The notes below the pieces were generated by a model. It saw nothing but the letters and a program-made list of their open reading frames with translations. It was not told the origin of the DNA and did not search any database. This document shows positions 54,026 through 56,467 of a DNA stretch of 64,000 nucleotides, piece after piece. Location: NCBI GenBank assembly GCA_048940925.1, contig JBHLOC010000017.1:22636-86635 (forward strand), given 5' to 3'. The first letter of the stretch is position 1, and each line of letters opens with the position of its first letter. The DNA is from Promethearchaeota archaeon. Lineage in GTDB: Archaea; Asgardarchaeota; Lokiarchaeia; Sigyniarchaeales; SOKP01. A program made the position numbers and the translations under genes.

Positions 54026-55297
54026 TCAATCTTTTTCATCATCTTTCTTATATTTAAAATATTCAGATTCAAGATTTGGAAAGAATCTTTTTCTTCTTCC
54101 TTCCTTTTTAATATTAATTAGATTTAATTCTCTCAGTTTTTTAATATGGTAAAGAATTGTTTTATGATCTACTTTAAACTTTTTAGTAATAAGATTATTC
54201 CATACGCCTGGTTGATCTTCAATCATTTCTAAAACTTCTAAAGTTAATTTACTTTTTTGAAGCTTGAGATCAATATTAGAAATAGGGTTCTTCTGATAAT
54301 ATGGAAAATAAGCAATAAAATTCCCTATTCTTTTTTTTCCAATGACTTTATAAGTTTCTAGAATATCAAGATGCCAGACCAAATTTCCCGCTGCAAGCCC
54401 CGTTTTTCTTAATAATTCATTGAAGTGAATACCCGGTTCACTCAAAATTAAATCAATAATTTTATTTCTATTTTCATTTTCTAAGACATCATCTAATGAT
54501 AAACGGTGAGCTCCTTTTTCTATAGGAATCGTTCTTGTTTTTAAATAACGGAAATAATCCTTTTTTGAAATAAGTATTATTATTGCTATAGTAGCAATAA
54601 TAATTATTGGTATAGTTATGTATAACCATGTCCAATCATATTGAACAATTCCAATTTCTATAAGAGTAATATAATAATCTGTATTTGCATCAACGTTTAA
54701 AAGCGAACTTTCTAAATAGCTTTCTGAACTTGAAGAGTTTAATTTTTCGTGTGTCTCAATTATTTGCCATGCATCTTGATCCATTTTGAATAATACTAAT
54801 GAATAAGAAGAATCAGGATCTAAACCAAATTGAGAGGTTTTTAGATATTGAATAGTAAAGTTATTAATTGTACCATTTGATTTAAAATTGAAAACTAAAT
54901 CATAATCAAATCTAATTTTCTTTTTTCCTTGCTTTGGTTCTTTTGGTTGTTTTATTGAACCAAAGTTCTTTAAACTACTTTTTGATGTAAAATTCAAAGA
55001 AATTGGCTCTTCATTATTAACAATAAAAGAGGTTTGTTTGTTCGCACTTCCATTTTCATATTCAATATAAATATCTAAAAGAGTATTAGAGGAGATTTCG
55101 AAAGTTATATTATTTAAAAAATGATATGAAACTCTTTCATTTGGTTGAATTGTATCTTCAGTCCAGAATCCAGGAATATTCTTTTGTTTGCTAGCTTTAG
55201 CATAACAAATAAGAATAGAGTAATCAAATAAAATTAAGAATAAAATAATCGCTATTATAATTTGATATTTCCAATTAAGTTTATTATGAAAGACCAA
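54026..55297 (-). CDS. Membrane-tethered transcription regulator: signal/TM, extracellular beta domain, TM, tandem wHTH
   Basis: VLENENRNKIIDLI..EPGIHFNEL...LVWHLDILE and a second HTH ending ILYHIKKL...GRRKRFF. Confidence 0.85.
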   Translation of the reverse strand: MVFHNKLNWKYQIIIAIILFLILFDYSILICYAKASKQKNIPGFWTEDTIQPNERVSYHFLNNITFEISSNTLLDIYIEYENGSANKQTSFIVNNEEPISLNFTSKSSLKNFGSIKQPKEPKQGKKKIRFDYDLVFNFKSNGTINNFTIQYLKTSQFGLDPDSSYSLVLFKMDQDAWQIIETHEKLNSSSSESYLESSLLNVDANTDYYITLIEIGIVQYDWTWLYITIPIIIIATIAIIILISKKDYFRYLKTRTIPIEKGAHRLSLDDVLENENRNKIIDLILSEPGIHFNELLRKTGLAAGNLVWHLDILETYKVIGKKRIGNFIAYFPYYQKNPISNIDLKLQKSKLTLEVLEMIEDQPGVWNNLITKKFKVDHKTILYHIKKLRELNLINIKKEGRRKRFFPNLESEYFKYKKDDEKD

Positions 55298-55381
55298 TTA
55301 ATATCAAGCTTTTATGGTTTAAATTATATTAAATAAAAATATAAAAAAAAATATTGGATTTGGATAATTCCTTCTTATTAA

Positions 55382-56065
55382 TTATTTTCTTTTCTTAAGA
55401 TATATTGCTATTCCTATTATTACTACAAGACCGACTATAACTCCAACAATTATATATATCATAGTAAAATCTTCTGATTCAGGGATTAGTACTGTCCAAG
55501 TTGAAAAATGATTCGTTTCACATACTAAATATCCATTTTGTAGTGAAGTTGGCATTGTAACCCATTCTTCAGTGCTTTCATCATAATATGCCCATTTTGC
55601 ATTTTGATTTCTGTTATTCGCTTCTAATTTAAGTTTGGCTTGACAAGAATCATTACATTGAATTGATACACAGAATCCTTCTTCAAATCTAAAGCGATTT
55701 CGATTTCTCACTTGATAAGTATGACCTTTTTGTAACCCAAGTTGGATTTGTTCTTCCGTACAAGTCATATTCATCTGAAGTTCATTTTCTGCATTTATTT
55801 CAATTTCAAAGTCTTTTGTTCCAATTTTCATAGCTTCACAACTAACATTTAAAGCAATACTAACATTACAATTAAAAGTTAGCCTAGTTCTCTCCCGAAA
55901 TTGTAGTTGCGTCCTGTTTCCCGCCTGAATTCGGGTTTGAATTGTATCTCCTGGAACATCAACAGGAGCCTCCCCATTAGTTGCCATTGAATTCAACGAA
56001 TAAAATGAAATAAATATTGAAAGAATTACTACACCTAAAACTATTTTTTTAAAATTTTTTAACAT
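55382..56065 (-). CDS. Secreted, C-terminally anchored surface protein with a juxtamembrane HFS motif
   Basis: Signal peptide, beta-rich Cys-containing domain, WAYYDESTEEW, CETNHFSTWTVL, TM and KKRK. Confidence 0.85.
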   Translation of the reverse strand: MLKNFKKIVLGVVILSIFISFYSLNSMATNGEAPVDVPGDTIQTRIQAGNRTQLQFRERTRLTFNCNVSIALNVSCEAMKIGTKDFEIEINAENELQMNMTCTEEQIQLGLQKGHTYQVRNRNRFRFEEGFCVSIQCNDSCQAKLKLEANNRNQNAKWAYYDESTEEWVTMPTSLQNGYLVCETNHFSTWTVLIPESEDFTMIYIIVGVIVGLVVIIGIAIYLKKRK

Positions 56066-56267
56066 TTTATAGACACCTTAACTTATCTATGGAATAAAAA
56101 GGGTATGATTTAAAAAGGATTAAGGAATAATTTTCCCCATTTGAATATTAATATTTAAAGAATGATGATATTAGATTATTAAATATTAGAATGAAGATAG
56201 CAGTAAGATTTTTAAAAGAACAATTAATTTTTTTTTATAACATAAATTGCTAATGTGATAAATTAGA

Positions 56268-56375
56268 ATGAAATTGCTTCAAGATATAGAAGACTCTACC
56301 TTTAGAAATTATCTGAAGTCTCATTCTTCATTAGAATTATGTTTAAGTGTATTAAACTTACACTTTTTATTATAA
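56268..56375 (+). CDS. Candidate Leu-rich leader peptide upstream of leuA (MKLLQDIEDSTFRNYLKSHSSLELCLSVLNLHFLL)
   Basis: 10 Leu in 35 aa, with 7 TTA codons in the last 14. TGTGAT RBS and a TTTATAA box ~30 nt upstream. Confidence 0.4.
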   Translation: MKLLQDIEDSTFRNYLKSHSSLELCLSVLNLHFLL

Positions 56376-56432
56376 AAAACCTTCTTTTCTTCGAAGAAGT
56401 ATTTTCAATTCCTTCCTAAGAACAAGAAGGTT
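56345..56432 (+). promoter_or_regulatory. Two inverted repeats in the leuA upstream region
   Basis: AAGTGTA-N7-TACACTT (56345-56365) and a long imperfect hairpin AACCTTCTT...AAGAAGGTT (56378-56432). Confidence 0.5.
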
Positions 56433-56467
56433 ATAAAATTTTAGAGAAATTTAAGTAGGTTAATAAA

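Follow-up and report, generated by a model that had tools for sequence, protein, structure and literature searches.

A candidate surface-sensing module in Lokiarchaeia: a minimal MAIN-like protein paired with a membrane-tethered paralogue bearing DNA-binding domains

Introduction

Can a self-cleaving domain on the surface of a prokaryote report its state to the genes inside the cell? The question is raised by two adjacent genes, referred to here as A and B, of a Lokiarchaeial genome (Promethearchaeota archaeon; Asgardarchaeota, order Sigyniarchaeales; GenBank assembly GCA_048940925.1). They lie in a stretch of 64,000 nucleotides (nt) of contig JBHLOC010000017.1 (positions 22,636 to 86,635 of the forward strand), which is called the window below and to which all coordinates refer unless a locus handle precedes them. 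A reading made from the letters of the window alone (the original prediction) had seen in the pair a receptor and co-receptor, in which cleavage or shedding of a GAIN-like subunit controls a membrane-bound transcription factor. Following up this reading by profile, structure and synteny comparison, we assign a probability of roughly 0.55 to the model developed here: A and B would form a surface-sensing module, with A a minimal MAIN protein and B its cleavage-dead paralogue with a DNA-binding output.

The Microbial Autoproteolysis INducing (MAIN) domain is a GAIN_B-like domain of bacteria and archaea, described in a May 2026 preprint by Brogan and Rudner (bioRxiv 10.64898/2026.05.12.724683). 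Cleavage between the F and the S of its conserved HFS motif was documented by Edman degradation and with mutants in which the S was changed to A or T, and the cleaved parts remain together; examples include Bacillus subtilis YfkN and the Streptococcus agalactiae IgA-Fc receptor (bioRxiv 10.64898/2026.05.12.724683). A typical MAIN protein is large, with a mean of 158 kDa, and places its adhesion or enzymatic domains between a signal peptide and the MAIN domain, which is followed by a wall anchor. According to the authors, no signalling mechanism has been linked to the anchored MAIN fragment, and the text of the preprint mentions neither Asgard archaea nor helix-turn-helix partners (bioRxiv 10.64898/2026.05.12.724683). 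Literature on the A-B pair itself was not found.

Results

Architecture of the A-B pair

The two genes are adjacent and co-oriented on the minus strand, much as the original prediction had described them. Gene A (55382-56065, minus) is an open reading frame (ORF) for a type-I membrane protein of 227 residues (P0001), in which a signal-peptide-like segment is followed by a MAIN/GAIN_B-like ectodomain, an HFS motif, a transmembrane (TM) anchor and a KKRK tail. The signal peptide (residues 1-28; 55982-56065, minus) was read from the sequence and corresponds to a helix at residues 3-24 of the structural model; its likely cleavage site falls between SMA and T. The beta-sandwich ectodomain (residues 34-198; 55472-55966, minus), supported by its Foldseek and VIA-align matches, is some 165 residues long and wholly taken up by the sandwich, with no passenger domain. 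It is succeeded by the C-terminal TM anchor (residues 200-223; 55397-55468, minus), which is evident from the sequence and as a hydrophobic helix at residues 200-226 of the model. A thus has the secretion signal and the direct C-terminal surface anchor of MAIN proteins, the anchor being a TM helix rather than a sortase or SLH element.

Gene B (54026-55297, minus) is an ORF of 423 codons with a TTG start (P0002; AlphaFold2 (AF2) model with a predicted local distance difference test score, pLDDT, of 83.9). A signal-peptide-like segment precedes an ectodomain paralogous to that of A (residues 36-218; 54644-55192, minus), a TM helix (residues 223-247; 54557-54631, minus; identified by hydropathy scan and seen as a helix at 223-253 in the model) and two cytoplasmic winged-helix domains (approximately residues 268-332 and 341-407; 54077-54496, minus). 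The latter were assigned from Pfam and from structure matches. PF24266 (HTH_HVO_0163_N) matches at 55.7 bits against a cut-off of 31 (E 5.2e-15), and HTH_24 and HTH_5 also match. The original prediction had likewise credited B with tandem cytoplasmic winged helix-turn-helix (wHTH) domains. Among known structures, ArsR/MarR folds are the best matches to the B model (Z 10-11.7), and Foldseek returned further tandem winged-helix proteins, including ScpB, RPC34 and TFIIIC.

The TM helix and tandem wHTH domains of B constitute a module which is widespread on many other, unrelated ectodomains (3508 matches). Many relatives of this kind (P0148, P0155, P0157, P0161, P0169, P0172, P0175 and P0179 among them) share another ectodomain with a conserved juxtamembrane sequence, YLNYPxGxxIxHDPKIG, and look like another uncharacterised family of membrane-tethered regulators. 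Within its own genome B is the sole close member of its family, the next protein being 39% identical.

Predicted fold of the A ectodomain

No family was assigned to the A ectodomain by sequence searches of Pfam, NCBIfam or the Protein Data Bank (PDB), and its fold was approached through structural models. The ectodomain is predicted to be all-beta save for one helix of four residues, with the single TM helix thereafter. A Foldseek search of the PDB with this model placed the GAIN domains of BAI3, CD97 and BAI2 on top (best E 5.3e-3), with ankyrin ZU5 next. VIA-align, an aligner independent of Foldseek which was run against a library of 48,161 representative chains and by whose own calibration a Z below 8 is middling, gave the GAIN domain of BAI3 as its top match (Z 7.0, root-mean-square deviation 3.9, 127 residues, model positions 37-195). 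The GAIN domains of CELSR1 (Z 6.5) and CD97 (Z 6.3) were also matched, and the FIIND domains of CARD8 and NLRP1 and the ZU5 domain of ankyrin came after GAIN (Z 5.0-6.3 overall, with FIIND at 6.0-6.3 and ankyrin ZU5 at 5.5-5.9 among them). The GAIN structures compared (BAI3, 4dlo; CD97, 9mqr and 8ikj; CELSR1, 8vy2) are approximately 10-12% identical to A in sequence. Three families of self-cleaving beta-sandwiches are known, GAIN, FIIND and ZU5, and the matches to them span the whole A ectodomain. The GAIN- or ZU5-like fold suspected from the sequence was thus recovered by two aligners, at middling scores; the accompanying analogy with Nup98 found no support in any fold match. The ends of the CD97 alignments (model residue 197 to chain residue 540; 200 to 543) would put S188 of A opposite residue 531, which we take to be the cleavage residue of CD97.

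A strand motif of A, RFRFEEGFCVSIQCNDS (residues ~122-142; 55640-55702, minus), resembles a motif of enterovirus VP2, YLYRSGFCIHVQCNAS. The resemblance is short and non-significant (E 0.09 by hmmsearch of PDB sequences) and was treated as a chance likeness between two beta-strands.

Conservation of the HFS motif in A and its loss in B

The HFS motif of A comprises residues H186, F187 and S188 (55502-55510, minus), within the segment HFSTWTVL (55487-55510) and the wider sequence HFSTWTVLIPESE. It stands approximately 12 residues from the C-terminal TM helix, in accordance with the original prediction, which had put it about a dozen residues before the membrane. Its conservation among 22 diverse relatives of A goes well beyond chance: F187, S188, W190 and T191 do not vary, and at least 90% of the relatives have H186. 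In the AF2 model the motif occupies the turn between strands 179-184 and 189-195, the second of these being the last strand of the sandwich, and the bond between F187 and S188 is the predicted self-cleavage site of A.

The corresponding stretch of B reads NVDANTDYYITL, with NVD (residues 201-203; 54689-54697, minus) aligned as the degenerate counterpart of HFS. Neither this sequence nor any of the 110 canonical B relatives has H-x-S/T at the position, which agrees with the earlier observation that B lacks the motif. One representative of a B-type cluster, P0126 (331 residues), has HLS at exactly the place taken by NVD, DLE or the like in canonical B proteins; on this regulator the cleavage triad has been either retained or regained.

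Paralogy of the two ectodomains

The original prediction had aligned the extracellular parts of A and B by eye. At the pairwise level this alignment is not significant (BLASTP E 0.045, 17% identity); at the profile level the relationship is real. A profile of 22 A relatives, compared by hhalign with a profile of 28 canonical B relatives from which fusion proteins were left out, aligned over 172 columns with a probability of 99.4% (E 2.5e-21). The A profile also matches the adjoining B gene in other genomes (E 1.9e-10), and P0001 matches B orthologues by tblastn (best E 8e-8). In the AF2 models the strands of the two ectodomains follow one another in the same order, down to a last strand that directly precedes the TM helix. 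Whole-B fold searches are swamped by the wHTH domains, and the fold of the B ectodomain therefore rests on profile homology and strand order; by these measures the two ectodomains are confirmed as paralogues. Averaged over 28 matched genomes, the A ectodomain is 53% identical and the B ectodomain 47%, as against 77% for the cytoplasmic part of B.

Distribution, synteny and relatives

The 264 homologues of A all derive from Asgard metagenome bins, their source names supporting the Asgard origin of A, and are nearly all of about 226 residues and 45-60% identical to it; a protein atlas search returned only the family's own clusters. Among species-representative genomes, the A profile matches 36 of the 40 in the window's family and all three of the sister family. 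The synteny check proposed along with the original prediction came out in favour of a conserved pair: A is followed by B within 55-99 nt at all 30 loci considered (29 in other genomes as well as the present one), and the pair is also kept in order-level relatives. The four genomes of the family without an A match (G132, G144, G153 and G162) are also without a strong B match, although the adjacency of the genes means that this is not independent evidence.

Some A paralogues are unlinked. Four of these, of 294-402 residues (L032:1399-2283, plus; L033:1397-2605, minus; L034:1063-1992, plus; L035:1304-2203, plus), have 50-160 extra residues inserted where the N-terminal half of the sandwich meets the C-terminal half, and three of the four retain HFS. 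No Pfam domain was detected in the three that were scanned (L032-L034).

In other Asgard families the A profile matches by its C-terminal half only, inside longer proteins. These begin with a signal peptide and end with a TM helix, and between the two lie one to three tandem modules that each close with THFSxWT. Proteins with two or three modules, TTHFSxWT ends and one TM helix are encoded at L036:1278-2846 (minus), L039:762-2396 (plus), L040:1177-2268 (plus) and L042:1731-2816 (minus). If every tandem module cleaves, such Asgard proteins would be chains of pieces held together non-covalently. In a distant Asgard genus, a two-module HFS gene lies directly downstream of a gene for a membrane protein with PF24266-type tandem wHTH domains; membrane regulator genes of this neighbourhood type are found at L042:3084-4430 (minus), L040:3-986 (plus) and L041:94-543 (plus). 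The ectodomain of the neighbouring regulator in the distant family (f22) is not detected by the A profile, and we read the neighbourhood as a second, differently built arrangement of HFS protein and regulator.

Natural A-B fusions

Four proteins of 384-407 residues (P0127, P0272, P0273 and P0274), from four contigs and two data sources, unite parts of A and B in one chain. They are 80-85% identical to one another. In each, the ectodomain (with HFS) and the TM helix are of A type and are joined directly to the post-TM segment and both wHTH domains of B, and the HFS motif stands approximately 12-15 residues ahead of the TM helix which carries the wHTH module. The ectodomains of the fusions are 71-84% identical to the stand-alone A proteins P0275 and P0279, a closeness which makes the fusion look like a deletion across the A-B junction that was later maintained. 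As gene architectures, the fusions show that an HFS ectodomain can take the place of B's own on the regulator, and they lend additional support to a functional link between A and B. A metagenome scan for the fusion gene returned canonical B loci only (no more than 51% identity across the greater part of the length, with higher values just over the wHTH part).

A palindromic box at A-type promoters

Comparison of the regions upstream of A revealed a conserved palindromic box of 21 nt (56119-56139, minus; family consensus TGGGAAAAATTATTCCTCAAT). It directly precedes a CC-TTTTTATA element, 64-79 nt ahead of the ATG of A. Position and conservation suggest a TATA-like element of the A promoter (56108-56116, minus) and a GGTG Shine-Dalgarno-like site (56074-56077, minus). 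A strict pattern finds the box in 28 of 30 A upstream regions, and the remaining two have near-matches; in some genomes the core forms a perfect GGAATAATTATTCC palindrome. Information content is 1.35 bits per position in the box and 0.22 in the flanks.

When the whole 4.8-Mb genome was scanned with a position weight matrix (PWM), the box occurred once, at a score of 30.3; the runner-up scored 20.7. The next seven best hits lie within coding regions, and the sole other intergenic hit among the nine examined scores 16.3; the box was not found ahead of secreted-protease genes in this genome. In other genomes the box is found, at an equal distance, ahead of the four unlinked insertion-bearing A paralogues described above, and diverged versions occur in the sister family. 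Its right half, TTCCTCAAAT, precedes the two-module HFS genes of the distant Asgard family, beside a different membrane gene with tandem wHTH domains. This restriction to A-type genes offers further support for a functional link, and the palindrome is a candidate operator of B. Such a site, just upstream of the TFB recognition element (BRE) and TATA box, is where archaeal activators, or factors that block TFB, typically bind.

One intergenic region (56140-56467) serves both the A promoter and the divergent gene leuA; the box is on the A side, approximately 330 nt from where leuA starts. Another box-like sequence, which lies in the A-B spacer of the window, was not conserved at other loci and was dropped. 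The same 84-nt spacer contains a run of nine T residues (55343-55351, minus). A T run is found in all 28 orthologous A-B spacers examined (T8-12 in 26, T7 in two) and probably acts as an archaeal termination or attenuation signal setting the ratio of A to B. Its place between the two genes would suggest that A is made in excess over B.

The genes around the pair are unrelated to A or B. Downstream are an M24 peptidase gene and a nitroreductase-like gene; upstream, on the opposite strand, are leuA and leuC.

Discussion

A surface-sensing reading of the pair

How might these observations fit together? In the surface-sensing reading that we favour, A would be a minimal MAIN protein, a single membrane-seated beta-sandwich without a passenger domain. 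Self-cleavage of A between F187 and S188 is most likely, and the last beta-strand probably keeps the large N-terminal piece attached. B would stem from the duplication of an A-type ectodomain which has lost its H-F-S triad and is connected by one TM helix to two winged-helix DNA-binding domains. It most likely binds the palindromic box abutting the BRE/TATA of the A promoter and would thereby control, in whichever direction, the transcription of A-type genes. The surface state of the A ectodomain, whether intact or shed by force or by a ligand, would probably be read by the look-alike ectodomain of B, and this reading of A together with binding of the box would make a closed surface-sensing feedback loop. 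The look-alike ectodomains and the fusions both point to the state of the MAIN domain as the thing sensed.

A more specific proposal is that the membrane-tethered tandem-wHTH factor, which would then act on the box of the MAIN gene, senses or is directly activated by the shedding of the cleaved MAIN ectodomain, be it through force or through a partner, perhaps by way of intramembrane release in the fusions. We offer this only tentatively.

Several observations weigh against the favoured reading. The fold matches of A are middling (Z at most 7.0, Foldseek E 5e-3), and only one of five A models was confident (pLDDT 80.6 vs 47-64). No sequence-level link from A to bacterial MAIN or eukaryotic GAIN domains emerged from searches of Pfam, of PDB sequences and, with the A profile, of longer proteins, the lack of matches in the last being weak evidence owing to word crowding. 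The fusion is rare, is found in metagenomes only and occurs in none of the 154 species-representative genomes of the order. The T run in the spacers suggests that A and B are not simply co-expressed, and a factor other than B could bind the box.

Alternative explanations

The alternative that survives best, though we consider it doubtful, is that B is an independent one-component membrane sensor in the manner of ToxR or CadC. It would respond to an external ligand; A would be its output, for example a coat or adhesion protein, and the shared ectodomain would be a relic of duplication through which no signal passes from A to B. That the box stands ahead of A-type genes only, which makes A look like a target, is readily accommodated by such a scheme, as is the occurrence of the TM and tandem-wHTH module on many unrelated ectodomains (the 3508 matches, those of the HDPKIG type among them). 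The undetected ectodomain of the f22 regulator and the T run, by which the expression of the two genes would be separated, fit it as well. The fusions are more awkward, since they swap the ectodomain of B for that of A and have kept this arrangement over 15-20% divergence, which is hard to explain for a dedicated ligand sensor. Across the whole order, moreover, the B ectodomain retains the full A-like strand order.

An unlikely explanation is regulated release similar to that of Notch or RsgI, in which loss of the cleaved N-terminal fragment leaves a short stub from which a site-2 protease or rhomboid frees the wHTH domains. In the fusions this could take place within one chain; in the pair, A would have to protect B. 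The layout of the fusions from HFS to TM helix is indeed that of RsgI anti-sigma factors with SEAL domains (bioRxiv 10.64898/2026.05.12.724683). Canonical B is nonetheless predicted to be unable to cleave itself, its motif being lost, and no protease gene is linked to the A-B pair. Prokaryotic membrane-bound regulators can in general bind DNA while tethered.

That HFS is structural rather than catalytic, with A a plain surface coat and the tandem winged helices of B binding protein, like ScpB, or tethering DNA, is very improbable: the matches of B to ScpB, RPC34 and TFIIIC, the middling Z-scores of A and the precedent of BAI2 and BAI3 GAIN domains which can be uncleaved (title of 8oek) agree with it, but the residues H, F and S go together, being conserved as a set in A, its paralogues and each tandem module of the other Asgard families and missing as a set from B, the best folds for B are DNA-binding ArsR/MarR structures (Z 10-11.7), and the palindrome at the A promoter is conserved.

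Relation to known systems

Of the known self-cleaving systems, the MAIN proteins resemble A in their GAIN_B-like sandwich, in the HFS motif placed in a beta-turn before the last strand, in the signal peptide and in an anchor directly after the domain. They differ in size and composition, since A has 227 residues and no adhesion or enzyme passenger vs a mean of 158 kDa, although the passenger is typical and not defining. A also has a TM helix as its anchor, in place of sortase or SLH, and is paired with, or rarely fused to, a membrane-tethered wHTH regulator.

The GAIN domains of adhesion G-protein-coupled receptors (GPCRs) are the best structural matches of A (Z 6.3-7.0); they have H-hydrophobic-S/T before the final strand, and their cleaved parts can stay associated. 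Unlike these receptors and PKD1, A has no helical GAIN_A subdomain and no 7TM or 11TM receptor, and a DNA-binding protein takes the place of the G protein as the putative output. The parallel to adhesion GPCRs and Notch which had been drawn from the sequence can thus be upheld as one of logic only, GAIN_A and the 7TM part being absent from A.

The ZU5 and FIIND domains (NLRP1, CARD8 and PIDD; ankyrin ZU5) are also matched by the A sandwich (Z 5.0-6.3). PIDD and Unc5CL use HF/S, and FIIND uses SF/S. These domains lie in the cytosol, ahead of UPA and death-fold domains, and act in inflammasome or death signalling, whereas the A domain is extracellular, adjacent to the membrane and trailed by a tail of only KKRK. 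With RsgI-SEAL and Notch the module may share the logic of a self-cleaved or pre-cleaved ectodomain, held together non-covalently next to a single TM helix, which controls a transcription regulator, and the fusions share the layout. The folds differ, being SEA-like in RsgI, LNR/HD in Notch and GAIN-like in A. So do the outputs, a sigma/anti-sigma pair or a released intracellular domain in those systems; no sigma factor accompanies A and B. ToxR and CadC, lastly, are similar to B in having a DNA-binding domain tethered to the membrane by one TM helix and an extracytoplasmic sensor domain. The DNA-binding part of B is C-terminal, the opposite topology, and consists of an ArsR-like tandem wHTH (PF24266) rather than one OmpR-type domain, in an archaeal host.

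Conclusions

GAIN domains were, to our knowledge, long considered a eukaryotic invention for mechanosensing. The MAIN preprint took the fold to bacteria and archaea, leaving open whether the anchored fragment signals into the cell (bioRxiv 10.64898/2026.05.12.724683). The Lokiarchaeial A-B module is a concrete candidate for this link between MAIN domains and signalling, comprising a MAIN protein without a passenger, a cleavage-dead copy that is attached to DNA-binding domains, rare fusions of the two and a box restricted to MAIN genes. It bears on whether signalling in the style of adhesion receptors predates eukaryotes, and is small enough for standard biochemistry. Should the path from shedding to transcription prove true, the module would provide, among the archaea most closely related to eukaryotes, a prokaryotic equivalent of the logic of adhesion GPCRs and Notch, and would represent the first signalling role for a MAIN domain.

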